This document shows, one piece after another, positions 4,359 to 17,780 of a DNA stretch of 64,000 nt. Under the pieces are notes generated by a model. It ran no database searches, had not been told where the DNA came from, and worked only from the letters and a program-made list of their open reading frames with translations. A program made the position numbers and the translations under genes. Source of the DNA: Kordiimonadaceae bacterium (GTDB taxonomy: Bacteria > Pseudomonadota > Alphaproteobacteria > Sphingomonadales > Kordiimonadaceae); assembly GCA_017640725.1 (NCBI GenBank), contig JAEPQB010000003.1, positions 544,704 through 608,703 on the forward strand, written 5' to 3'. Numbering within the stretch: position 1 is the stretch's first letter; every line of letters starts with the position of its first letter.

Positions 4359-6503
4359 CTACTCAGACACTGGACTGGGGCTGTTTTTTGAAAATAATCT
4401 GTGCGGGCTGGCATACTCAGCCCGCATTTTGTTTGGCTGAATATCATCAAGATACAAGCCGACAGGACCAGCGGCAGCAATGTCCTCAATTGCTAAGAAC
4501 ACTGCTGGGTTGCGACAATGGCGCCGCAAGTCATAGGGCGCAATGACGATATGACCTGTGTTGCAAGCGTTTCTAACGACCTCAAGTGAGACGCTTCGGA
4601 CAATTCGCAGATTTTGCGCTGTTGAGCTTGGGACGGCAATATTAGTTAGGCAACCACGGTCATTACATTTTCTGTCGAGTTTTTTGCTTGGCGCGTTTAA
4701 GGGCATATTCCAGTAGCGCATCCAGATTTCGTCCCGAAAACCACCGCGTCTGCCCCCTATCACCCGAAATTCGTGGTTGTCAGATTTTGCAGCAATGATG
4801 CGCCCTTCGCTGTCTATCAATATGATTGCCGTGTTTTTTTGCATGAGGGCAATCGCAACAACGAACGTCAAGCTGATCGCTATTGGCATCAATCGATGCC
4901 TTATTAACATTAGCAAAGCGAACAGCAGGAACGTTACCAACAAGACTTCTGGGTGAAATGGCCCTGCCCGAAGCACGCTTAAGGGGGCCTCAATCAAAAA
5001 TGAAGACAGGGCAATAATCCAATCTAGCCCCAAGCCCATGACCGCCAAGAGCACCCCATCCAACCCCAAGGGTATGAGAACAAGCGACAGAAAAGCAGCC
5101 GGCATCACAATAAAGGCCATGAGAGGTACGGCAAGTATATTGGCAAGGATGCCAATCACCGATAGTGCCTGAAAGTGAAACAGGGCAATGGGTGCAATGG
5201 CGACCTGTGCAACCAAACTGGTCAGGGCTGTGGCTGCGACGAATGTACCCAGATTATGAAATCTCCGCTGAACTGTTGAATTTTGAATTTGTTGCTGTCT
5301 CGAAGATCTGCCGCGGCTGACACTTTCATAGAAGACTATGAGTCCAATGGTAGCTGCAAAGGACATCTGAAAGCTGATCGACAAAATTGCCTGCGGAGTC
5401 ATGACTAGAATAGCCATTGCAGCAAGAGCGACACTTCTAAGTGACAGTACTCTGCGGTCTGTGACAACCGCCAACAACGCAATGGATACCATGACAAAAG
5501 CCCGCAAGGTGCTTATGCCGGCTCCTGACAAAAGAAGATAAACAACTGCAGTTACCCATGCCCCTAAAGCAGCAAGTTTTCGAGCAGGATAGCGGGCAGC
5601 AAAGCCAGGTAATGCCGCGAAAAGGAATTCAAGCAGGAAAAACGCAACACCTGTTATTAAGCCCATGTGAAGGCCGGAAATGGCCAACAAGTGAGCTAAG
5701 CCTGCATCGCGCAATATATTGGCTGTTGCCCTATCCAAATGTTGTCTCTGGCCAGTAATCAATGCCACCGCGACACCAGAGATGGGTTGGCTGAGCGTAG
5801 ACAAAATGCGCTCAGAAAGATTGTTTCGATAGTTGGCAAGTCGTGTGAAAAAACTGCTGTTGTGCGGCAATGACGGGTGAAAATCGATTGGTGATACTGC
5901 AAAACCCCTTAGGGCGATGCCTTTAAGCCGATGGTTGAGTGCGAAGTCAAAACCTCCTGGCACCATTGGCCCGGACTGTGGCTCCAAAATAGCTGTCAAT
6001 TGCACGGCGTGGCCTGTTGCCAGAGTATCAGGATAGTCTGTTCGCACAGTGATCTGGATGTCTTCTCCAGCTAGTTCCGGCAGTTTACTGGCCTCCATTA
6101 CGGTGATCCGCAGGCGCAGGGGCGCGGCAATACGATGCTCTATACTTTGGACGTAACCTGCTATGTTGACAAAGGATTCTCTTTCGATCTCGATATTTGG
6201 CAGTTGGTTCTTATGAACCGCAGCGATTGCTGCACCCAAGACAAAAAACGCAGTCAAAACAATTGGTGATTTCCGGTTTTCGGCCGCAAACCAACCGGTT
6301 AACAGCAGCACAAGACCAATGATCACACCGATGAAACCTGTGTATGCCGGCAATTCAAAGGTAAATGAACTCGCACACCCGACAGCGAACAGGATGGCAC
6401 TGCTAATGAGCCGCCAATCTTCATGGAGTTTGATTGCCAAGCGGCCTCGTTCAAACACCTCACTTATGGCGTTAGAGATATTGGAAAGCCTCATAAACAC
6501 CAC
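4359..6503 (-). CDS. comEC: ComEC/Rec2-family competence membrane protein
   Basis: AGLAHLLAISGLHMG, TLRAFVM and SFQMSFAA motifs, many TM segments, conserved position between lexA and gltX. Confidence 0.9.
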   Translation of the reverse strand: MVFMRLSNISNAISEVFERGRLAIKLHEDWRLISSAILFAVGCASSFTFELPAYTGFIGVIIGLVLLLTGWFAAENRKSPIVLTAFFVLGAAIAAVHKNQLPNIEIERESFVNIAGYVQSIEHRIAAPLRLRITVMEASKLPELAGEDIQITVRTDYPDTLATGHAVQLTAILEPQSGPMVPGGFDFALNHRLKGIALRGFAVSPIDFHPSLPHNSSFFTRLANYRNNLSERILSTLSQPISGVAVALITGQRQHLDRATANILRDAGLAHLLAISGLHMGLITGVAFFLLEFLFAALPGFAARYPARKLAALGAWVTAVVYLLLSGAGISTLRAFVMVSIALLAVVTDRRVLSLRSVALAAMAILVMTPQAILSISFQMSFAATIGLIVFYESVSRGRSSRQQQIQNSTVQRRFHNLGTFVAATALTSLVAQVAIAPIALFHFQALSVIGILANILAVPLMAFIVMPAAFLSLVLIPLGLDGVLLAVMGLGLDWIIALSSFLIEAPLSVLRAGPFHPEVLLVTFLLFALLMLIRHRLMPIAISLTFVVAIALMQKNTAIILIDSEGRIIAAKSDNHEFRVIGGRRGGFRDEIWMRYWNMPLNAPSKKLDRKCNDRGCLTNIAVPSSTAQNLRIVRSVSLEVVRNACNTGHIVIAPYDLRRHCRNPAVFLAIEDIAAAGPVGLYLDDIQPNKMRAEYASPHRLFSKNSPSPVSE

Positions 6504-6648: not shown

Positions 6649-8061
6649 GTGTCCCTACTCATGCCCAACGTTGTTACACGATTTGCACCTTCCCCTACCG
6701 GTTTCCTCCATATTGGAGGAGCACGGACAGCGCTCTACAATTGGTTGTATGCGCGCCACCATGGCGGAAAGTTTCTTTTACGCATAGAAGATACCGATAG
6801 GGCTCGCTCTACTGAAGAAGCTATCACAGCAATTCTGAGTGGCATGCAGTGGCTCGGGTTGGACTGGGATGGTGATGCAATTAGCCAGTTTGACAATGCC
6901 AAGCGTCACCAAGAAGTTGCTGAGCAAATGCTTGCAAATGGTTCCGCCTATAAGTGTTATGCCACGCCTGAAGAAACGGCGGAATTGCGGTCAGCAGCGC
7001 GGGAAAAAGGTGTCCCTTTCCGCGGTGATATGTGGCGCGACAAAATAGTTGACGGTGAAACGGCGACGAAACCCTATTCCGTGCGCATTAAAATGCCACG
7101 AGAGGGTGAAACCACCATTGAAGACGCGGTGCAAGGCAGTGTTACAGTTCAGAACAGTGAACTGGACGATATGATCCTTCTTCGGTCTGATGGTACGCCC
7201 ACATATATGTTGGCTGTAGTGGTTGATGACCATGACATGGGCGTGACACATGCGATACGAGGCGATGATCACTTGAACAACGCTTTTCGCCAGTACCAGA
7301 TTTATGCGGCAATGGGTTGGACTGCGCCGACTTTTGCCCATATTCCTCTTATTCACGGCCCGGACGGCAAAAAACTGTCAAAACGCCATGGTGCATTGGG
7401 CGTGGATGCCTATGCAGACATGGGTTTTGTAGCTGAGGCAATGCGTAATTATCTGCTGCGGTTGGGGTGGAGCCACGGCGATGACGAGATCATTTCTACG
7501 GATCAGGCGATCGACTGGTTTAATCTAGAAAATGTGGGTAAAGGCCCTGCCCGGTTCGATTTTGATAAGCTCGACAGCCTTAATGCACACTACCTGCGAC
7601 AAATGAGTTCAGATAATCTCTTGTCGCTGATTAAAAACGACCTAGAAAAGACAGTGCAGTCTCCTTTATCTGAGGAAGAAAGCACGAGAATACTGCGCGC
7701 CCTGCCAGCTGTTGCGGAGCGAGCAAAGCGTTTACCGGATGTGATCGAGGGAGCGTCGCTTTTTTGTAACATTCGACCAGTATCGCTTACCGATAAAGCG
7801 GCAAATACCGTTGGTGGCCAAGGGCCAATGTTTAACGGTATTGCCACTGAACTGACCGCTCTGACTTCCTGGCAACAGGATGAGATTAAAGCGGCCATTA
7901 TGTCCTTTGCACAGGCGAGGGATTTGAAATTGGGAAAGGTTATGCAACCTATCAGAGCCGCTGTTACTGGCGGTGCCCCTTCGGGGGATCTGGTTGAACT
8001 GCTGGAGATACTAGGCCAGCAGGAAGTGGTTGCCCGGTTAAATGATCTGACCGAAGCCTGA
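6649..8061 (+). CDS. gltX: Glutamate--tRNA ligase
   Basis: RFAPSPTGFLHIGG (HIGH), LRIEDTD and KLSKR (KMSKS-like). Start is GTG 6649 or ATG 6661. Confidence 0.96.
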   Translation: MSLLMPNVVTRFAPSPTGFLHIGGARTALYNWLYARHHGGKFLLRIEDTDRARSTEEAITAILSGMQWLGLDWDGDAISQFDNAKRHQEVAEQMLANGSAYKCYATPEETAELRSAAREKGVPFRGDMWRDKIVDGETATKPYSVRIKMPREGETTIEDAVQGSVTVQNSELDDMILLRSDGTPTYMLAVVVDDHDMGVTHAIRGDDHLNNAFRQYQIYAAMGWTAPTFAHIPLIHGPDGKKLSKRHGALGVDAYADMGFVAEAMRNYLLRLGWSHGDDEIISTDQAIDWFNLENVGKGPARFDFDKLDSLNAHYLRQMSSDNLLSLIKNDLEKTVQSPLSEEESTRILRALPAVAERAKRLPDVIEGASLFCNIRPVSLTDKAANTVGGQGPMFNGIATELTALTSWQQDEIKAAIMSFAQARDLKLGKVMQPIRAAVTGGAPSGDLVELLEILGQQEVVARLNDLTEA

Positions 8062-8110: not shown

Positions 8111-9397
8111 ATGTCTAACGATCCCCTGAAATTGACCGGCGACGGTCTGGAAGTCGATCTCCCCGTGATGGAAGGCTCCGTGGGTCCAAAAGTTATTGAT
8201 ATTCGCAAATTGTATGCTCAAACGGACATGTTCACGTTTGATCCTGGTTTCACGTCTACCGCCAGCTGCGAATCTAAAATCACGTATATTGACGGTGAAA
8301 AGGGTGAATTGCAGTACCGCGGTTACCCAATTGAGCAATTGGCAGCGCATAGCGATTATATGGAATGTTGCTACCTTCTTCTGTTTGGCGAGTTGCCAAC
8401 TAAAGCCGAAAAAGAAAAGTTTGTCTGGGACATCACGCACCACACTATGGTGCATGAGCAATTGCACCGCTTCTTCAGCGGTTTCCGTCGTGACGCTCAC
8501 CCAATGGCAATTATGGTTGGAGTTGTAGGTGCTTTGGCTGCGTTTTATCACGACAGCACTGACATCAATGATCCGCATCAGCGCATGGTGGCAAGCTATC
8601 GCATGATTGCCAAGATCCCGACGATCGCAGCAATGGCCTACAAATACTCTATTGGTCAGGCGTTTGTATATCCCGACAACAATCTGTCGTATGCGGGTAA
8701 CTTCCTGAAAATGATGTTCTCGGTTCCAGCTGAAGAATATGAAGTTAATCCAATCCTTGAAAAAGCGATGGACCTGATTTTCATTCTGCATGCAGACCAC
8801 GAGCAAAATGCATCAACTTCTACAGTTCGTCTGGCCGGATCTTCTGGTGCCAATCCTTTTGCGTGTATTGCTGCTGGTATTGCGTGCTTGTGGGGACCAG
8901 CTCACGGCGGTGCTAACGAAGCGTGCCTGAACATGCTGAACGAAATCGGTACCGTTGACCGCATTCCAGAATTCGTTGCTCGGGCCAAAGACAAATCCGA
9001 TCCATTCCGTTTGATGGGCTTTGGTCACCGGGTGTACAAAAACTTCGATCCACGCGCGACAGTTATGCGTGATACTGCGCACCAGGTTCTCAAAGAACTC
9101 GGTGTGGATGACCCACTTTTTGATGTGGCGATGGAACTTGAGAAAATCGCACTGGAAGACGAATATTTCGTTGCGAAGAAACTGTATCCAAACGTTGATT
9201 TCTATTCAGGTATCATTCTGAAAGCCATGGGTTTCCCAACAGAAATGTTCACCGTGTTGTTCGCCTTGGCGCGCACCAGTGGCTGGATCGCCCAGTGGAA
9301 CGAGATGATTGAAGACCCAACGCAAAAGATTGGTCGTCCGCGTCAGTTGTTCACAGGGACGCCGAAGCGCGACTATGCGCCATTGGAAAGCCGTTAA
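8111..9397 (+). CDS. gltA: Type II citrate synthase
   Basis: [36 protein letters not shown] and NVDFYSG motifs. Confidence 0.98.
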
Positions 9398-9419
9398 CGG
9401 CCTTAGAACCATCTAAACG

Positions 9420-9450
9420 AAAAAAGCCGCCCGGTCTGGGCGGCTTTTTT
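9420..9450. terminator. Bidirectional intrinsic terminator between convergent gltA and fabZ
   Basis: AAAAAAGCCGCCC-GGTCT-GGGCGGCTTTTTT. Confidence 0.9.
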
Positions 9451-9482
9451 ATTGGTTATAATTGTCGGATGAGCCGTCTAAG

Positions 9483-9920
9483 TTACTCAGCCCCGAGCAT
9501 GGCGGTTAGTTTGGCTTCGGTAACAAGCTCGTCGTTGACATAGGCAGCAGCGTCGAACTTCCATACGGAGCTTCCACCGCGTGTCTTGTTTACCTTCATG
9601 TGTAGAACATCGCCGGGCACAACTGGACGACGGAATTTGGCACCGTCAATACCCATAAAGTACATAACCTTGCCTTTGGCGTCGTCCCCCAGGAATTGAA
9701 CAGCCAGAACGCCAGCGGTCTGTGCCATCGCCTCCAAGATCAAGACGCCCGGCATAACAGGTTTTTGTGGAAAGTGGCCCGGAAAAAATGGCTCGTTAAT
9801 TGTGACATTCTTGATGCCGGTTGCACTTTCACCGGGAACAATGTCCACCAGTTTATCCACCAACAGGAATGGATAGCGGTGTGGAATGGATTCCAGGATT
9901 TCCGCAATAGAGAGTTCCAT
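9483..9920 (-). CDS. fabZ: 3-hydroxyacyl-ACP dehydratase FabZ
   Basis: PHRYPFLLVD and FFPGHFPQKPVMPGVLILEAMAQ. Start ATG 9920 has GGAGG 5 nt upstream. Confidence 0.96.
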   Translation of the reverse strand: MELSIAEILESIPHRYPFLLVDKLVDIVPGESATGIKNVTINEPFFPGHFPQKPVMPGVLILEAMAQTAGVLAVQFLGDDAKGKVMYFMGIDGAKFRRPVVPGDVLHMKVNKTRGGSSVWKFDAAAYVNDELVTEAKLTAMLGAE

Positions 9921-9932
9921 GATGACCTCCGG

Positions 9933-9956
9933 CAATAAGCGCAAAAGCGCTTATTG
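9933..9956. repeat. Perfect 10-bp inverted repeat between skp and fabZ
   Basis: CAATAAGCGC-AAAA-GCGCTTATTG, overlapping the skp stop codon. Confidence 0.8.
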
Positions 9957-10622
9957 ACCCTCAGGGCTTACGGGCACTTCATCAGTGGCTTCGCCAGTGT
10001 CAGCAGCCTGCTGAAGCAGCGTAAGGGTTACTGTTGGCAACGAATCATCCAGACGCTCAATAAACTCTGTCGTCACATCAAGGCCAGAAGCAGTTTCAAG
10101 CGCAAGGCTCTTACGCATAATGATCTCGGCACCACGTTCCTTCAGGATTTCCCGCAACAGTGGGCTGCGCGCGCGTTCCACTTGTGTTTGGGCCTCGCGG
10201 CGTAGATTGTCGAAATACAATTCGAGCTGACGCAGCTGGTTGGTTTCATTCTGCAACTGCTGGCGCATTTGCTGACCTTCAGTTTGGAAAGTCGCTTCTT
10301 TGGTTTGACGCTCCGTTTCATAGGCATCATTACCAATGATGGATTTTCTTTTTTCAAGATCATCCAATTCCGCGACCATACGCTGCTGGAATTGAACAGC
10401 AGTTTGATCCCAGAAACCGTCTGGCGACGTGCGTTGACGAAGGGCGATGATGGCATCGCGAATTTTAGCTGTTTGAAGATCAAAGTCTTTAAAAGCTGCT
10501 GCTTCGCGCTGAACGCGCTCTTGGTCGATGATCAGAATATCAGCTGCTGCTGATACTGTAATGCTTGTGGCAAGCGCTAGACCTGTCACTGCCTGGATTA
10601 GTTTTGTTGCGATATTCCGCAT
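9951..10622 (-). CDS. skp: Divergent, elongated OmpH/Skp-family periplasmic chaperone
   Basis: Signal peptide, IID-x-x-x-V N-terminal strand, long coiled coil, C-terminal LDVTTEFIERLD, position directly after bamA. Confidence 0.75.
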   Translation of the reverse strand: MRNIATKLIQAVTGLALATSITVSAAADILIIDQERVQREAAAFKDFDLQTAKIRDAIIALRQRTSPDGFWDQTAVQFQQRMVAELDDLEKRKSIIGNDAYETERQTKEATFQTEGQQMRQQLQNETNQLRQLELYFDNLRREAQTQVERARSPLLREILKERGAEIIMRKSLALETASGLDVTTEFIERLDDSLPTVTLTLLQQAADTGEATDEVPVSPEGQ

Positions 10623-10640
10623 GTTTGTACCCCATGTACT

Positions 10641-13235
10641 CTAAAAAGTTGTTCCCACATTAAACTGCAGCGTTTGAGTTCTGTCCCCCAGCTGCTGTCT
10701 TAGTGCCCTTGTCAGGTCGATGCGGAATGGTCCGAATGGCGACTGCCATGAAAATCCAATTCCTGCCACAACCCGAGGAGAAGCGCTATCACCCGCAATA
10801 CAGTTAGTATTGAACGGGAATACTGGCAATTCTTCTCCAGCATCTTGTGCAGCTCTTGCCGCGGCGTCGAAGTCCAAAAACTCCCGACGTGAAAATTCGC
10901 AATTGGGAGTATCACTAATTTGCCCGCGGAACAAGGAGCCAGCGTCAACAAATACAGAAGCATTGATGCCAGACTCGAGTGCCGCTTCACCCAGCGGGAA
11001 GAAAAGCTCAGCCCGGCCAATATAGAAGGCCGTACCGCCAAGCGAGTTTGTTCTGTTATTGGTGCCGTTAAAGTCGCGCGGCCCGATACCGGCCACGTCG
11101 AAGCCGCGAATGCGGGGACCACCGATATAAAACTTGTCCGCAAGAAGCACTGACTGGCCCAGTCCTTCGATAAATCCGCCTTCTGCACTAGCCCGGAAGG
11201 TCCACCCGGCCCATGGCGTCCAGTAATTATCGGTACGAACCTGTGAGCGAAGATAGCGAACATCGCCACCCAAACCGGCAAAATCCTGGCTGAACGAGAA
11301 GGACTTACCGCGTGTGGGTCTGATTAGACTGTTGCGGCTGTCAGTACCCACGGTGTATCCGAAAATTGACTGAAAGCGTGTCCCGATCGATTCCTGGAAT
11401 GCTCGGCCCAGGCCGAAAGCCAGCTCTCTGGCTTGAAACTCTCCGTCACCGTTAGTGTCAAAGTCGTCATTCGTAATCTCGCCGTCACCGTTCGAGTCAA
11501 ACTCGTCCAGCGTCGCCTGATCATTTGACGTGTCACCATCAGCCAAAAGGGACTGAATACTGGCAACGGCCGCATTGAAGTTGGGTTCCAAAATCCTGTT
11601 TGGTACCTCAACATTGTCTCTACGCAGCGTATAGCGAGTGCTGAGGAACCAATATTCGTTCAAAGACATACCAGCCCTGAGCGAGAAGCCCAGAGAGTCC
11701 TGGTCAAAGGCAGCACCAAAGTTTGAGCTGTCGATCCGGCGGGCAAAAATATCAGCACCCGCTGCGACCCGCCGACCATTGAAATATGGTTCCGTAAAGC
11801 CCAGGTCGATTTCTTGACGCGTACCAGACAAACGGAGGCCCAACCTCAGGTCTTGTGCCCTACCACGCCAATTTCGCTGTCTAATGGAGAAGTCGAAAAT
11901 AAAGTTCTCAAGACTGGAGAAACCTGCGCCCAAGTTTAGCTCACCAGTAGCTTGTTCCTCGACCGCTACGTCAAGGATCATCCGGTCAGGCTGGGACCCC
12001 TGCAGCTGTTCAATTTCAACCTCGCGGAAGAAATCAAGACGCTGAAGGCGGTTATCCGACCGATTAACAAGCGCAGAGTTAAAAGCATCGCCTTCTTGGA
12101 GGCGGAACTCGCGGCGAATAACACGGTCCAGCGTAACCACATTGCCGCGGATGTTGATGCGTTCAACATAGACCCTTGGCGCATCCAGAATACGGAACTT
12201 GATGTTCATTATTCTGGCTTCGCGATCACGATTAATCTCTGGGCGAACGTCTACAAACGCGTAACCCAACAAACCGGCTGCGTTAGAAAGTTGCTCGATG
12301 GTCTGTTCGATGGATTCCGCGTTGTAGTTTTGCCCTTCACGCATCAAAAGAAATGCACGGAACAGCAACTCATTTACATCGCGGATTTCGCTTTCAATTT
12401 CGATTTCACCGAACTTGTAGATCTCGCCTTCTTCGACGGTGAAGGTAATAAAGAAGTCCTCACGGTCGGGCGTCAGCTCGGATACGGCTGAGACAACGCG
12501 GAAATCCGCATAGCCTTCGTTCAAATAGTGCTGTCGCAGGACTTGCTGGTCATAGGCCAAACGATCTGGGTCAAACGTGTCGTTAGACGTGAAGAACTTC
12601 CACCAGCGGGATTCTTTGGTGGCAAGAACATCGCGAAGGTCACCATCGCTATATATTTTGTTGCCGATGAAATTGATTTTACTGACTTTGGTCTTTGGTC
12701 CCTCTTGGATTTCAAAAACCAAGTCAACGCGGTTCTGGTCTTGCTGAACCACTTTAGGCTCAATAATCGCAGCGAACCGCCCGGAACGACGGTAAAGCTC
12801 CAGCATGCGCTGAACATCTGCGCGCACACGAGCACGGGTGAAAACTTGCCGTGGGCGAAGGCGAACCTCTTCGGCTAATTCTTCGTTATCGAGCTTCTTA
12901 TTGCCTTCAAAAATAATGCGGTTGATGATTGGGTTCTCGACCACACGAACGATAAGAACGCCCCTGCTCTCTGTTAGTTCGACGTCGGAGAACAAACCTG
13001 TGGCAAACAGGTTTTTAAGGCTCTGGTCAAGCGCGCCAGGATCAAAGGGGTCACCAGGGCGCACAGTCAAGTAGGAAGCGATCGTCTCAGGCTCTACGCG
13101 CTCGTTGCCGGAAACAGAAATCTGTCGAATGACTGGAAGCTGCTCAACGGCATCTGCCTGCTGGGCTGATACGGTCGGAACAACTGAAAAAATACTGATG
13201 ACTAGCCCCAGCGAAATCGCCAAGGTTTTTGTCAT
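10641..13235 (-). CDS. bamA: Outer membrane protein assembly factor BamA
   Basis: POTRA repeats (GNERVE, LFATGLFSDV), IRGF L6 motif, FVDAG, C-terminal QFNVGTTF. Start probably ATG 13235 (or GTG 13244) rather than 13331. Confidence 0.97.
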   Translation of the reverse strand: MTKTLAISLGLVISIFSVVPTVSAQQADAVEQLPVIRQISVSGNERVEPETIASYLTVRPGDPFDPGALDQSLKNLFATGLFSDVELTESRGVLIVRVVENPIINRIIFEGNKKLDNEELAEEVRLRPRQVFTRARVRADVQRMLELYRRSGRFAAIIEPKVVQQDQNRVDLVFEIQEGPKTKVSKINFIGNKIYSDGDLRDVLATKESRWWKFFTSNDTFDPDRLAYDQQVLRQHYLNEGYADFRVVSAVSELTPDREDFFITFTVEEGEIYKFGEIEIESEIRDVNELLFRAFLLMREGQNYNAESIEQTIEQLSNAAGLLGYAFVDVRPEINRDREARIMNIKFRILDAPRVYVERINIRGNVVTLDRVIRREFRLQEGDAFNSALVNRSDNRLQRLDFFREVEIEQLQGSQPDRMILDVAVEEQATGELNLGAGFSSLENFIFDFSIRQRNWRGRAQDLRLGLRLSGTRQEIDLGFTEPYFNGRRVAAGADIFARRIDSSNFGAAFDQDSLGFSLRAGMSLNEYWFLSTRYTLRRDNVEVPNRILEPNFNAAVASIQSLLADGDTSNDQATLDEFDSNGDGEITNDDFDTNGDGEFQARELAFGLGRAFQESIGTRFQSIFGYTVGTDSRNSLIRPTRGKSFSFSQDFAGLGGDVRYLRSQVRTDNYWTPWAGWTFRASAEGGFIEGLGQSVLLADKFYIGGPRIRGFDVAGIGPRDFNGTNNRTNSLGGTAFYIGRAELFFPLGEAALESGINASVFVDAGSLFRGQISDTPNCEFSRREFLDFDAAARAAQDAGEELPVFPFNTNCIAGDSASPRVVAGIGFSWQSPFGPFRIDLTRALRQQLGDRTQTLQFNVGTTF
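11424..11507 (-). repeat. Tandem 39-bp (13-aa) repeat in bamA encoding two EF-hand-like loops
   Basis: DEFDSNGDGEITN / DDFDTNGDGEFQA(RE). The DNA unit CCGTCACCGTT recurs at 11443 and 11482. Confidence 0.85.
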
Positions 13236-13305
13236 ACGCTTCACTAAAAAACTCAAGTTAAAGCCCAATCTAAATAGTCTTGTGCATAATGGCGGTGAAA
13301 TTGAC

Positions 13306-14415
13306 CTAGAGCGCCATGGATTGCAAGTCATTCAAGGTCACAAACACCATAAAAATTAGCATTAAGGCCATTCCTGCAACGAAACTGGCTTCCTGTGCCT
13401 TTTTACTAAGGGGTGAGCCCTTCAAAGCCTCTAATCCATAGAACATGAGATGCCCTCCATCGAGAACCGGTATGGGGAGGAGATTAACGATTCCGAGGTT
13501 AAGCGAGAGAATAGCGAGAAAGAATATAAAGCTGGCCAAACTGATGCTGGCGGCTTCGCCTACCATGTTGGCAATGCGAACAGGCCCGCCCAGTTCTTTG
13601 ACTGATCGGATGCCCAGAACAATCTGGCCAAGTGTGGTAAACATCATGTCACCCATGGCGATTGTTTGGCGACCACCTTCTGCAAGGGAGCCGAAAAGTC
13701 CTAGTTCATGATAGGTTGCCTGGTATCCGCCAATCCCTAGCCTGCCGAGGGGATATTGATTGCCAAATCGATCCTGCATGTAACGAATGTCGAGGGTTGG
13801 TGTCAGGGTCAGTGTTTCGCCGTCACGATCGACAACAATTGGTATGGTTGCAGCTGGATACAGCCTCACAATTGCGCCAATGTCGCTAAAACGACTGACG
13901 GCTTCGCCATTGACAAAAAGAATGGTGTCATCTTGCTGTAGACCAGCTTTTTCCGCGGCAGACTCCTCAAGTACAGAAGCGACTTTGGGTTCAGCGATTG
14001 CGATACCGTTTATAAAAACAAAGCCAGCAAAAACCAAAGCTGCAGCGATCAAATTTATGGCCGGGCCTGCGAAGGCGATAAGAGCCCTTTGCCATACCGG
14101 CTTGTAATGAAAGCAGACGTCTCTTTCTTCAGGACTTAGGCCTTCAGGGATATCCCCTGGATTGCTTGCTGCCGAAGCGTCGCCGAAGAACTTCACGTAT
14201 CCACCAATTGGCAAAACGCTGAACTTCCAGCGAGTTCCATTTTTGTCTGTTCGGCCAAACAGCTCTTTGCCCATACCGATGGAAAAAGTGTCGATCTTCA
14301 CACCGAAGATGCGCGCCACGATATAGTGGCCCCATTCGTGGATGAACACCAAAATTGAAAAGCCGCCAACAAATGCGGCTATGGTGAAAAGGAGTCCTGG
14401 GCCTTCAGTTTCCAT
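13306..14415 (-). CDS. rseP: Site-2 zinc metalloprotease RseP
   Basis: HEWGH zinc motif, PDZ-like domain, NLLPIPVLDGGH. Confidence 0.95.
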   Translation of the reverse strand: METEGPGLLFTIAAFVGGFSILVFIHEWGHYIVARIFGVKIDTFSIGMGKELFGRTDKNGTRWKFSVLPIGGYVKFFGDASAASNPGDIPEGLSPEERDVCFHYKPVWQRALIAFAGPAINLIAAALVFAGFVFINGIAIAEPKVASVLEESAAEKAGLQQDDTILFVNGEAVSRFSDIGAIVRLYPAATIPIVVDRDGETLTLTPTLDIRYMQDRFGNQYPLGRLGIGGYQATYHELGLFGSLAEGGRQTIAMGDMMFTTLGQIVLGIRSVKELGGPVRIANMVGEAASISLASFIFFLAILSLNLGIVNLLPIPVLDGGHLMFYGLEALKGSPLSKKAQEASFVAGMALMLIFMVFVTLNDLQSMAL

Positions 14416-14443: not shown

Positions 14444-15610
14444 CTAGGCGGCCAACTGGGTTAACAAGTTCTGCGCAATCAATCTGGCTTCCTGATCTTG
14501 CTCAAACACATTTGAAAGCGAATGTGGCGCTTTCATGTCGATCTTATCAAGAGTTGCCTTAACAACGGATGAAATGTCCATAAAGCCTATTTTTTCTTTA
14601 AGAAATGCTTCCACTGCTACTTCATTCGCGGCGTTAAGCGCTAACGGCGCCGAACCACCCTCATGCAAGGCATCCATAGCGAGCTTCAGACATTCGAATT
14701 TCTCGAGGTCGGGCTCCGCAAACGTCAGTTGTGCCAATTCCGGTAAGGAAAGCGACGGTACCGGCGCATCGATACGGTCTGGCCAAGCCAGTGCATAGGC
14801 GATCGGAGTTCGCATGTCCGGGCTTCCTAACTGCGCCAAAACACTGCCATCGTTGTATTGCACCATTGAATGGATCACAGATTGCGGGTGAATAACCACT
14901 TCAATCTGGTCCTTCTGAACAGGGAAAAGATGAAAGGCTTCAATGACTTCAAGGCCTTTGTTCATCATGGTGGCAGAGTCGACAGAGATTTTCTGACCCA
15001 TATCCCAGTTGGGATGAGCAACAGCTTCCGCGGGTGTAACATTTTTGAGGCAATCGGTACGCTTTTGCCAAAACGGCCCACCTGACGCAGTCAATATTAT
15101 CTTTTCAACCGTCGTGGCGCGCTCAAAATCGAAGACCTGATAGATGGCATTATGCTCTGAATCGACGGGAAGAATGCGCGCCCCGCTCTTCTCGGCTTCC
15201 TGCATGAACAATTCCCCTGCGCAGACAAGGCACTCCTTGTTTGCGAGGGCAATGGTTTTGCCTTGCCTCACAGCCGCGAGGGTCGGCCGCAATCCAGCGG
15301 CGCCAACAATGGCTGCCATGACCAGGTCGCAACTGACCTCTGCCGCTGCGATCAGGCCTTCAGTCCCGCACAAAGCTGTAACGGCAGTGCCTGCCAGCGC
15401 TTCCTTCAAGTCGCTGTACAGAGTTTCATCCGCGATCACTGCCACTTCAGCTGAAAATTCTCTGGCAAGAGCCGCCAATGCGTTGACATTGCTATTGGCT
15501 GTTAGGGCTTTGATGGCGAAGCGATCAGGATTTCTGCGGACAAGGTCTACAGTGCTTGCCCCAACCGAGCCCGTGGCGCCGAGAATGCTGATGCTTTTGA
15601 TGGTACTCAT
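14444..15610 (-). CDS. dxr: 1-deoxy-D-xylulose-5-phosphate reductoisomerase
   Basis: ILGATGSVG, LANKE, PVDSEH, LTASGGPF and KISVDSATMMNKGLE. Start ATG 15610. Confidence 0.97.
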   Translation of the reverse strand: MSTIKSISILGATGSVGASTVDLVRRNPDRFAIKALTANSNVNALAALAREFSAEVAVIADETLYSDLKEALAGTAVTALCGTEGLIAAAEVSCDLVMAAIVGAAGLRPTLAAVRQGKTIALANKECLVCAGELFMQEAEKSGARILPVDSEHNAIYQVFDFERATTVEKIILTASGGPFWQKRTDCLKNVTPAEAVAHPNWDMGQKISVDSATMMNKGLEVIEAFHLFPVQKDQIEVVIHPQSVIHSMVQYNDGSVLAQLGSPDMRTPIAYALAWPDRIDAPVPSLSLPELAQLTFAEPDLEKFECLKLAMDALHEGGSAPLALNAANEVAVEAFLKEKIGFMDISSVVKATLDKIDMKAPHSLSNVFEQDQEARLIAQNLLTQLAA

Positions 15611-15617
15611 GAATGCA

Positions 15618-16454
15618 TCACCCACTAACCTGCGACAGCTCAGGGATGGCAAGCGCTACGGCAACCGCTGGTGCCGCGAAAATCAATCCGTCCACCCTGT
15701 CAAGAATACCGCCATGCCCCGGGATGAGGTTTCCGCTGTCTTTTTGGTCTAACGCTCTTTTTATTGCGCTTTCGTACAGATCCCCCATTTGGGCGATTAC
15801 AGCGACAATGGCGGCAGCGAAAGGCATCAAAAGCGGATCGCCCAAGTCAAAAAGCAGGGAAATAGCTAGGGAAACCAATGCAGCGAGCACCATGCCGCCA
15901 ATTAGGCCCGCCCATGTTTTCTTAGGGCTAATAACCGGCGCCAGTTTTGGTCCGCCGATTCCTTTGCCGGCAAAATAACCACCCACATCCATGGCCCAGA
16001 CAGCAAAAAATAACCAAATGACGATAAGGCCGTCTTGATCCTGTGCTCTCAACCAAGCGAGGGACATCAATGCCATGGTGACATATACTGCGCCTGCTCC
16101 TGCGTTCATCTTAGATTGGCCAGTGGCTGAACTTCTGGCAATTTTTGACGGCGAATGCGCCAATAAGACACCGCTCATCAGTAGCATCGCAATTGCAATT
16201 GCAGCACCACTAATGGCGTTAGGGTTCGCAGTCACAATTGCTGTCAGTGATACAGCTGCAAAGTAAGGAACAAACCTGTCCCGATCAGACACATCAGTTA
16301 GCGTGAACCATTCGCGCAACATAAGAAAGCCACCTGAGGCGAGCAGTGCAAAAAAATACCAGCCACCCAGATAAATCAAACCCAGCACGACCGGTAACAG
16401 CGTTAGAGCGGACACAACGCGCTTAAACAGATTGTCTGATAATCCTAAAGGCAT
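15618..16454 (-). CDS. cdsA: Phosphatidate cytidylyltransferase
   Basis: ISPKKTWAG, GDLYESAIKR and KDSGNLIPGHGGILDRVD motifs. Confidence 0.95.
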   Translation of the reverse strand: MPLGLSDNLFKRVVSALTLLPVVLGLIYLGGWYFFALLASGGFLMLREWFTLTDVSDRDRFVPYFAAVSLTAIVTANPNAISGAAIAIAMLLMSGVLLAHSPSKIARSSATGQSKMNAGAGAVYVTMALMSLAWLRAQDQDGLIVIWLFFAVWAMDVGGYFAGKGIGGPKLAPVISPKKTWAGLIGGMVLAALVSLAISLLFDLGDPLLMPFAAAIVAVIAQMGDLYESAIKRALDQKDSGNLIPGHGGILDRVDGLIFAAPAVAVALAIPELSQVSG

Positions 16455-16470
16455 TCGTTGAACTTAAACT

Positions 16471-17214
16471 CTAAGGGCGAGCGCCATAGCGGCGATCCCT
16501 GTTTTTGAATTCTTCAACGGCCTCGGCAAAAATCTGGCGGGTAAAGTCCGGCCAGAGCGTAGGCAGGAAAAGAAACTCCGAATATGCTGCTTGCCACATG
16601 AGAAAGTTCGACAAGCGTTGTTCTCCACTAGTTCGGATAATCAGATCTGGATCCGGCAGCTTATTTGTATATAGCGCGGCAGAGAATGTTTTCTCGTCGA
16701 TATCGCTTGCATTGATCTCCCCAGCGGCAACCCGCTGAGCAAGGTTTTGCGCCGCCAGTGTTAGTTCCTCTCGGGAACCATAACTTAGCGCAATAATGAG
16801 AGTAAGGCGTCGGTTATGCTCGGTCCGCCTCTCCGCGTCTTCAATCATTTGGCGAATGTCATCACTAAGCGCATCGCGGCGTCCAATGACCTGAAGGCGC
16901 ACGCCCTCTTTTGCCAAAGTGCGCACTTCCTTTTTCAAATACATGCGCAGCAGACCCATAAGGTCCCGAACTTCGTCTTCCGGGCGATTCCAGTTTTCCG
17001 TCGAAAAGGCATAAAGCGTCAAAAACTCAACACCGTTTTCAACAGCCCCTTCAATGGCTTCGCGAACTGCGTCAGCCCCTTTGCGATGCCCTTTGCTTCG
17101 GGACACGCCGTGCTGCTGCGCCCACCGGCCGTTGCCATCCATTATGATAGCGACATGGGACGGCGCACTGGCGCCGCCAGTGTCGGTAGAAACGGCTGCA
17201 GCTTCCGCACTCAT
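16471..17214 (-). CDS. uppS: Undecaprenyl diphosphate synthase
   Basis: HVAIIMDGNGRWA, YAFSTENWNRP and RTSGEQRLSNF. Start ATG 17214 or TTG 17220. Confidence 0.96.
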   Translation of the reverse strand: MSAEAAAVSTDTGGASAPSHVAIIMDGNGRWAQQHGVSRSKGHRKGADAVREAIEGAVENGVEFLTLYAFSTENWNRPEDEVRDLMGLLRMYLKKEVRTLAKEGVRLQVIGRRDALSDDIRQMIEDAERRTEHNRRLTLIIALSYGSREELTLAAQNLAQRVAAGEINASDIDEKTFSAALYTNKLPDPDLIIRTSGEQRLSNFLMWQAAYSEFLFLPTLWPDFTRQIFAEAVEEFKNRDRRYGARP

Positions 17215-17216
17215 AC

Positions 17217-17780
17217 TCAAACCTGCATAATCTCCGCTTCTTTGGCGCTCAGAGTAGCGTCCACTTCAGCGACAAAGGTGTTTGTCAGCTCCTGAACTTC
17301 ATCAGCATACATTTTGTGGTCGTCTTCACTGATGGCCTTATCTTTTTCAAGGCGTTTCAAAGTGTCCATGCCGTCTCGACGAACATTACGGATCGCAATA
17401 CGGCCCTGCTCTGCATACTTGGCGGCGACCTTGGCAAGCTCAGTGCGGCGTTCTTCATTCAACTCTGGTATCGGGATGCGAACAAGTTGGCCGTCCAACA
17501 TCGGATTGAGGCCCAGTCCAGAATTGCGAATGGCTTTTTCAACTGCTGAAGCATTGGACTTGTCCCAAACCTGCACAGACAGCATTCTTGGCTCAGGAAC
17601 GGTTACAGTGCCAACTTGATTGAGCGGCATGTTCGCGCCGTAAACGTCAACGGTTACTGGGTCCAACAGGCTCGCTGTTGCTCGACCAGTTCTAAGGCCT
17701 GCAAATTCAGATTTCAGGGCTTCAATCGCCCCTTTCATGCGCCGTTCAATGTCATCTAGATCAATGTCATCATCACTCAT
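17217..17780 (-). CDS. frr: Ribosome recycling factor
   Basis: [17 protein letters not shown] and IRNVRRD. Start ATG 17780. Confidence 0.97.

Follow-up and report, generated by a model that had tools for sequence, protein, structure and literature searches.

The question raised by this locus is whether a bacterium in which fabZ stands alone between bamA and gltA can still be making lipid A. The locus lies in a stretch of 64,000 nucleotides (the window in what follows; contig JAEPQB010000003.1 of assembly GCA_017640725.1) from a member of the Kordiimonadaceae that by its sequence is a Kordiimonas. In the window fabZ has neither lpxD upstream nor lpxA-lpxI-lpxB downstream, and profiles of LpxD, LpxA, LpxI and LpxB matched none of the open reading frames (ORFs) of the bamA-fabZ-gltA region. 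We consider it highly probable that Kordiimonas is naturally free of lipid A, that the ancestor of its order lost the Raetz pathway, and that the outer leaflet would be made of a sphingolipid exported through LptFG. Our evidence is genomic, namely which genes are present or absent, their synteny and phylogeny and how they are distributed, and from it we infer the lipid, its placement in the leaflet and its transport route. The genes of the locus, in window coordinates, are the following:

4359..6503, minus strand: comEC, flank of the conserved block (TIGR00361, 146.5 bits; ComEC_N-term, 103.5 bits, over cut-off)
6649..8061, plus strand: gltX, glutamate--tRNA ligase (TIGR00464, 484.3 bits)
8111..9397, plus strand: gltA, citrate synthase, convergent to fabZ (NF004126, 781.6 bits)
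9420..9450, no strand: bidirectional intrinsic terminator common to gltA and fabZ (A6-GCCGCCC-loop-GGGCGGC-T6; 14 pairs, 7 G-C)
9483..9920, minus strand: fabZ, alone (NF000582, 193.5 bits; TIGR01750, 191.4 bits)
9951..10622, minus strand: candidate Skp-like (OmpH-like) periplasmic chaperone, 223 aa (position; weak OmpH match)
10641..13331, minus strand: bamA, 896 aa (TIGR03303, 709 bits)
13306..14415, minus strand: rseP (TIGR00054, 267.7 bits)
14444..15652, minus strand: dxr (NF009114, 507.4 bits)
15618..16454, minus strand: cdsA-like (NF008635, 111 bits, under cut-off; 47% identity to E. coli CdsA by tblastn)
16471..17220, minus strand: uppS (NF011408, 349.1 bits)

The original prediction had given the gaps on both sides of fabZ as 30 bp (to skp) and 85 bp (to gltA), with one terminator shared by fabZ and gltA, and the measured coordinates proved both distances exact. 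The third gap, between skp and bamA, is 18 bp, and a terminator scan mapped in the gltA-fabZ gap a single bidirectional terminator (9420-9450) that is usable by both genes. The gaps around fabZ are too small to hide a gene remnant; with no space there and no lpx profile match, the claim that neither an acyltransferase nor a remnant of one is left at the locus was upheld. fabZ probably starts at an ATG (9920) that is preceded by GGAGG; the longest ORF (9483-9944, minus strand) begins with a TTG at 9944. The identity of the Skp-like ORF is weak by sequence (Pfam OmpH at E=7e-4 and 20.3 bits, short of the 32.4 needed for gathering; no NCBIfam match) and is backed by position. ORFs resembling it were detected by tblastn at the same position in other loci (L015-17, L029, L052, L053, L058, L066 and L093).

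For comparison, 80 related loci were retrieved with FabZ and the reference proteins were mapped on all of them. The nearest FabZ relatives, with 79-85% identity, were those of Kordiimonas gwangyangensis, K. lipolytica and a Kordiimonas metagenome-assembled genome (MAG). The genome of K. gwangyangensis is also assigned the same genus code as the present one. In 64 of the 80 loci fabZ was flanked by lpxD and/or lpxA, and lpxB was found in most. The usual order was dxr-rseP-bamA-(skp)-lpxD-fabZ-lpxA-(lpxI)-lpxB, often facing gltA-gltX-comEC, so that the arrangement with lpx genes around fabZ that had been claimed for this region is indeed the prevalent one. The empty arrangement was present in 15 retrieved loci, three from Kordiimonas and 12 from other lineages. 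All 15 genomes carrying it were LpxC-negative genome-wide and 14 were positive for serine palmitoyltransferase (SPT); five genomes that have lpxA in the locus served as controls and were all LpxC-positive, none of them with SPT.

The search was extended to the whole genome (4.04 Mb in 14 contigs, completeness 100%, contamination 0.05%). The hidden Markov model (HMM) of LpxC (TIGR00325), run over the whole genome in six frames, gave no match at E<=0.01; of its controls, only E. coli, Caulobacter, Synechococcus and Bacteroides were positive. The best match to the LpxA HMM in the genome reached 32.7 bits against a cut-off of 231, i.e., hexapeptide noise. WaaA (PF04413) and LpxK (TIGR00682) were found in none of 16 genomes of the family, the present one included; the 15 others span 11 genera, with closed genomes among them. 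By tblastn with E. coli K-12 queries, no LpxB, LpxC, LpxH, LpxK or WaaA was detected in the whole genome, and LpxA and LpxD gave no more than hexapeptide noise, the same search recovering the neighbours UppS, CdsA, RseP, BamA and FabZ. Alphaproteobacterial profiles built from the loci (LpxD, n=63; LpxA, 64; LpxB, 45; LpxI, 33) were also run against all stop-to-stop ORFs of the genome, where LpxB reached at best E=0.32 and LpxI had no match. Since HMM, profile and tblastn searches were all negative, the Raetz pathway (lpxA, B, C, D, H, I, K and waaA) is absent from the genome. The complete lpx/kdtA set that the original prediction had proposed to look for elsewhere in the genome was thus not found.

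This absence extends well beyond the organism. According to GTDB, Kordiimonadaceae, Emcibacteraceae and Rhodothalassiaceae belong to o_Sphingomonadales (PMC8879329); NCBI/LPSN keep Kordiimonadales as a separate order. Among 81 sampled genomes of the GTDB order (10 families, 42 genera) LpxC was found in none, and SPT, counted in the 67 high-quality ones, was found in all 67. The proposed loss of lipid A is therefore real at the gene level, but it is not private to this organism (LpxC 0/81, in an order to which Sphingomonadaceae also belong). The absence of LpxC from all 81 genomes can be taken as an indication that the loss is old and order-wide and that the junction healed long ago, rather than in a recent event. 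In our interpretation, the ancestor of the whole order would have lost the Raetz pathway, the bamA-skp-fabZ/gltA junction would be the healed site, and fabZ alone would have been kept because fatty-acid synthesis needs it. The presence of SPT in SERIK lineages has been already reported (PMC10411912); our literature search met with no publication in which Kordiimonas is said to lack lipid A. Kordiimonas is in this sense a new, expected relative of the endotoxin-free Sphingomonas type, and the locus taken by itself shows no new biology.

The alternative lipid route that had been predicted was found at the gene level, in the form of a ceramide locus with SPT located on a contig other than that of the window (C9:123-137 kb). 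Three alpha-oxoamine synthases are encoded in the genome, and the C9 copy is SPT, with 606 bits on NF047599 (cut-off 500) and 619 bits on NF047603 (cut-off 670). The locus (L096) contains:

L096:3553-5097 (C9:125553-127097): 514-aa polytopic membrane protein, weak MatE/MOP match, between the desaturase and lptG
L096:8300-9355: DAGK-type kinase, CpgB-like (DAGK_cat, 46.8 bits)
L096:9336-10334: 332-aa ORF in the CpgC position between kinase and spt, no Pfam match
L096:11103-15394: spt, acyl carrier protein (ACP), CerR-like short-chain dehydrogenase/reductase and fatty acyl-AMP ligase, a known four-gene operon
Within 10 kb of spt: LptG (288.5 bits) and LptF (236.6 bits)
Other genes within 10 kb: a 239-aa periplasmic ORF, DUF2141, a fatty-acid desaturase and a 380-aa GNAT protein

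Together, the acyl-ACP synthetase, ACP, SPT, the CerR-like reductase, a GNAT-type candidate for the ceramide synthase bCerS and the desaturase would produce ceramide. The candidate is the 380-aa protein; bCerS is said to have been described as a GNAT-type enzyme by Stankeviciute et al. in 2022. The DAGK-type protein, a putative CpgB-like ceramide kinase, and the 332-aa ORF, a candidate for its partner in the CpgC position, would then probably turn ceramide into an anionic phospho-sphingolipid. The kinase is conserved beside spt in both LpxC-negative and LpxC-positive genomes, the 332-aa ORF holds the place between kinase and spt in 10 other loci, and the ceramide gene set recurs across other families and lineages. 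The 514-aa MOP-like protein keeps this location in three further families of the order and is a candidate sphingolipid flippase.

The lptF and lptG genes of this locus are the only pair of the genome; no second pair was found. Genomes having both LpxC and SPT carried two pairs (10/10), those with LpxC and no SPT carried one (7/7), and in LpxC-negative, SPT-positive genomes the single pair was located beside spt. A tree of LptF, built from trimmed proteins, was split (99/99) into a canonical clade and a clade of the sphingolipid loci. The 12 LpxC-negative genomes in it, the present one included, had the sphingolipid-locus type only; all ten LpxC-positive genomes with SPT had one of each, and the seven without SPT the canonical type only. 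These types, together with the paralogy, support that the ceramide locus was gained first and that lipid A and the canonical LptFG were lost afterwards. The rest of the export machinery is in place: the rpoN-lptB-lptA-lptC cluster and lptD-surA are intact, with scores (LptB 370, LptA 59.6, LptC 34.5 and LptD 185 bits) all over Pfam or NCBIfam thresholds, and an MsbA-like transporter (33% identity across the full length) was detected by tblastn. By analogy, the retained Lpt system is most likely a sphingolipid exporter, in which an LptB2-LptF2G2 transporter would hand the lipid to the LptC-LptA-LptD bridge. For this we lean on Caulobacter genetics (bioRxiv 10.64898/2026.04.12.717747) and on Sphingomonas chemistry.

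Some genomes departed from these LptF patterns. Two LpxC-negative, SPT-positive genomes, G393 (Reyranella sp., L047) and G145, had no LptF or LptG match at E<=1e-10, and sphingolipid export may follow another route in them; their spt locus (L116) consists of acps-cerR-acp-spt-bCerS only. A highly divergent LptF beside spt was found in L133 (G249) and L135 (G140), with top TIGR04407 scores of 303 and 266 bits; in the tree it forms a long basal branch of the sphingolipid-locus clade, and it may represent a third LptF type. In the LpxC-negative genome G101, an extra LptF of the sphingolipid type (L130, C2:2840335-2841411) is located far from the spt locus.

Several points weigh against a sphingolipid outer leaflet exported in this way. 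With 619 bits where 670 are required, the SPT narrowly misses the cut-off of the alphaproteobacterial model, though it is above that of the sister model; one family of the order reached 785-835 bits on the alphaproteobacterial model, over the cut-off, as expected for Sphingomonadaceae. Both bCerS and the CpgC-position partner are candidates by domain type and position only, and a PgsA-like CpgA is absent from the locus (Pfam, L096:1207-15394, E<=1 for unassigned ORFs; the rest of the genome was not searched for it). LptA (62.8 vs 71.7) and LptC (27.9 vs 38) are under their NCBIfam equivalog cut-offs, and export by the Lpt system is transferred from another organism. The literature searched held no lipid A or sphingolipid analysis of Kordiimonas, and a taxonomic review gives sphingolipids as reported only from Sphingomonadales (PMC7179689).

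The alternative that survives best agrees with ours in that lipid A is absent, with the outer leaflet consisting mainly of phospholipid, aminolipid or a lipid-anchored capsule of 3-deoxy-D-manno-oct-2-ulosonic acid (Kdo) and the sphingolipid being a minor component, as in wild-type Caulobacter. Phosphatidylethanolamine and phosphatidylglycerol are the major polar lipids in the descriptions of the family (PMC7179689), although the standard extraction of species descriptions recovers highly polar sphingolipids poorly (PMC9393093). The genome does have a Kdo/KpsC capsule operon, and one LpxC-negative Defluviicoccus MAG was without SPT. SPT alone is not proof of replacement either, because 22 LpxC-positive genomes of the class also have it. 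However, SPT was present throughout the high-quality genomes of the order and in the LpxC-negative genomes of the class from 2.8 Mb upwards save two fragmentary ones, the canonical LptFG is gone with the sphingolipid-type pair retained, and an anionic sphingolipid is what permits lipid A loss in Caulobacter (PMC9393093). We regard a leaflet with little sphingolipid as improbable.

Far less credible is that the lpx genes were merely relocated in the chromosome and normal lipopolysaccharide (LPS) is made. The window alone would be compatible with it, and in the genome-wide survey proposed in the original prediction LpxA, B, C, D, H, I, K and WaaA were absent, with controls positive, and SPT was present, but kdsA, B, C and D (by tblastn), LptA-D and LptF/G were kept, so that Kdo synthesis and the whole Lpt bridge are there. 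The kds genes are found in a KpsC-type context, in an operon (L101:401-8727, C7:600401-608727) that contains kdsA, kdsC, kdsB, a 698-aa KpsC-like capsule protein, a phosphopantetheinyl transferase and sulfotransferase-like genes, and the sole LptF is of the sphingolipid-locus type. Because of this context and the absence of WaaA, Kdo is best explained by a capsule, and we discarded the kds genes as a sign of LPS. Judging by this operon, the LPS-free cell may carry a capsule that is linked to Kdo and possibly sulfated. Adjoining it is an ORF of 1623 aa (L101:8866-13737).

About as remote is the synthesis of lipid A by enzymes that are not homologous to those of the Raetz pathway. Alternatives for single steps exist (LpxH, LpxI, LpxG), and the best match of the LpxD profile in the genome (74.7 bits, C10:19860-21431) is a fusion of a dehydrogenase with a hexapeptide acyltransferase. 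However, this would require the simultaneous replacement of every step throughout the order, and the fusion protein resembles most UDP-GlcNAc 3-dehydrogenase and NeuD/PglB-type acetyltransferases, with 66.7 bits for LpxD against a cut-off of 242.5. It was rejected as LpxD or LpxA, being a 520-aa Gfo/Idh/MocA dehydrogenase fused to a NeuD/PglB-type acetyltransferase. The dehydrogenase part is UDP-sugar 3-dehydrogenase-like and the other a hexapeptide N-acetyltransferase, and the protein probably serves a diacetamido sugar of a surface polysaccharide. A second hexapeptide match (C7:522328-523782, 485 aa) was set aside as GlmU-like by its length, its N-terminal nucleotidyltransferase-like sequence and its C-terminal hexapeptide repeats. 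Least plausible of all is an assembly artefact, since the assembly, although a 14-contig draft, is 100% complete and its gaps would need to hide at least seven unlinked genes, the locus is contiguous and without room for them, and closed single-contig genomes of the genus and family (G003, G042 and G060) also lack LpxC, WaaA and LpxK.

The loss of the Raetz pathway together with a sphingolipid route has clear parallels. In Sphingomonas and the Sphingomonadaceae the outer membrane is naturally devoid of LPS and contains glycosphingolipids (Kawahara 1991 and Kawasaki 1994, cited in PMC9393093 and bioRxiv 10.64898/2026.04.12.717747). LpxC, LpxB and WaaA are missing from Sphingomonas, which retains the Lpt system and encodes its only LptFG next to spt (bioRxiv 10.64898/2026.04.12.717747). 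Kordiimonas, of the same GTDB order, agrees in the absence of these three proteins, the retention of LptA-D, the sole lptFG beside spt and the spt-acp-cerR core with a bCerS candidate. It differs in being another family (a separate order for NCBI/LPSN) known here from genes alone, and in the CpgB-like kinase, its partner, DUF2141 and the MOP-type protein, which were not seen beside spt in one Sphingomonadaceae-type locus (L124). Because of these extra genes, the head group in Kordiimonas may be phospho-based and not glycosyl.

The second parallel is Caulobacter crescentus, in which the products of ccna_01212-01226 make ceramide diphosphoglycerate (CPG2) by means of CpgABC and export it with LptF2/G2/C2 (PMC9393093; bioRxiv 10.64898/2026.04.12.717747). 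LptF2/G2/C2 are needed when the anionic sphingolipid is made, and bind LptB (Uchendu, Isom, Klein 2026, bioRxiv 10.64898/2026.04.12.717747); survival without lipid A is enabled by ceramide phosphoglycerate (CPG) (Zik et al. 2022, PMC9393093). The Kordiimonas locus contains the same genes in almost the same order (bCerS candidate, lptG, lptF, kinase, partner, spt, acp, cerR and acyl-ACP synthetase), and its LptF falls in the clade of the second copies of Caulobacter-type (LpxC- and SPT-positive) genomes. In contrast, Caulobacter makes LPS, has two LptFG pairs and tolerates the loss of lipid A only with fur inactivated; in Kordiimonas the lipid A genes and the canonical LptFG are gone, and neither a PgsA-like CpgA (in the locus) nor a second LptC was found.

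The same state was met in other parts of the class. An evenly sampled set of 301 alphaproteobacterial genomes had LpxC in 262 and SPT (called by score threshold) in 44. Both were present in 22 genomes, LpxC only in 240, SPT only in 22 and neither in 17 (Fisher p 2e-11, uncorrected for phylogeny). The 17 genomes with neither were of 0.5-2.0 Mb, save two larger fragmentary assemblies, and all LpxC-negative genomes of at least 2.8 Mb were SPT-positive except the two fragmentary ones. The Caulobacter-like state with LpxC and SPT corresponds to 22 of the 262 LpxC-positive genomes. In the SPT search the E. coli control was positive at every threshold, and calibration relied on five LpxC-positive alphaproteobacterial controls, none of which was positive at E<=1e-100.

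The combination of an empty locus, absence of LpxC and presence of SPT was found in at least five separate alphaproteobacterial lineages:

GTDB Sphingomonadales (Kordiimonas included)
a Hyphomicrobiales-affiliated clade
the Reyranella clade
a lineage labelled Paracoccaceae
a Defluviicoccus-like group

Desertibaculum has the same state and is not separated from GTDB Sphingomonadales by the tree. On the six-protein tree (a quick search under a simple model, with a sample biased to FabZ relatives of Kordiimonas) six state changes were needed, at least five of them forced by well-supported branches. Placing all lpx-less loci in one clade lowered the log-likelihood by 601, and the approximately unbiased (AU) test on the six-protein concatenate rejected such a single origin (p 4.8e-7). 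In the separate lpx-less lineages the ceramide locus is again found together with lptFG, the kinase and its partner. On balance, we lean towards lipid A loss being a repeatable route in free-living Alphaproteobacteria, taken at least five times, in which the ceramide locus with LptF2G2 would be gained and the Raetz pathway and canonical LptFG then discarded, leaving a scar-free bamA-(skp)-fabZ/gltA junction; the lipid of Kordiimonas would be a phospho-sphingolipid of CPG type and not a glycosphingolipid. Literature searches on the lipid chemistry of Reyranella, and for surveys of lipid A loss in Alphaproteobacteria, gave nothing specific.

Some members of the comparison set call for separate mention. 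The Defluviicoccus sp. MAG G401 (L093) has an empty bamA-fabZ locus, no LpxC and no SPT at E<=1e-100, and is either an incomplete MAG or a lipid-A-free lineage without sphingolipid. A MAG labelled 'Asaia bogorensis' (L056) is near-identical in locus and tree position to Reyranella sp. (L047) and is probably mislabelled. L090 (labelled 'Paracoccaceae') and L025 (labelled 'Gammaproteobacteria') had unexpected tree positions.

Lipid A is usually held to be near-indispensable in two-membrane bacteria, Sphingomonas being the textbook free-living exception. Other naturally lipid-A-free diderms (Anaplasmataceae, Borrelia, Treponema) are host-bound, with reduced genomes and no SPT. Kordiimonas shares with them two membranes and the lack of the Raetz pathway, but is a free-living marine heterotroph of 4 Mb with a sphingolipid route. 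The exception thus extends to a whole order-level clade, including cultured, fast-growing marine strains of Kordiimonas, and its gene signature is simple and has predictive value, consisting of an empty bamA-fabZ-gltA junction, absence of LpxC, presence of SPT, and LptFG of the sphingolipid type only. The separate lineages are natural independent replicates for asking what life without lipid A requires and whether sphingolipids are transported over the Lpt bridge; these organisms make no LPS for LptB, C, A and D to carry. They are also relevant for endotoxin-free production hosts and polymyxin targets. Their value is comparative. The window itself is a further case of known biology, and the wider comparative pattern merits a study of its own. 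As a minor observation on the window, its BamA (10641-13331, 896 aa) is about 90 aa longer than that of E. coli.

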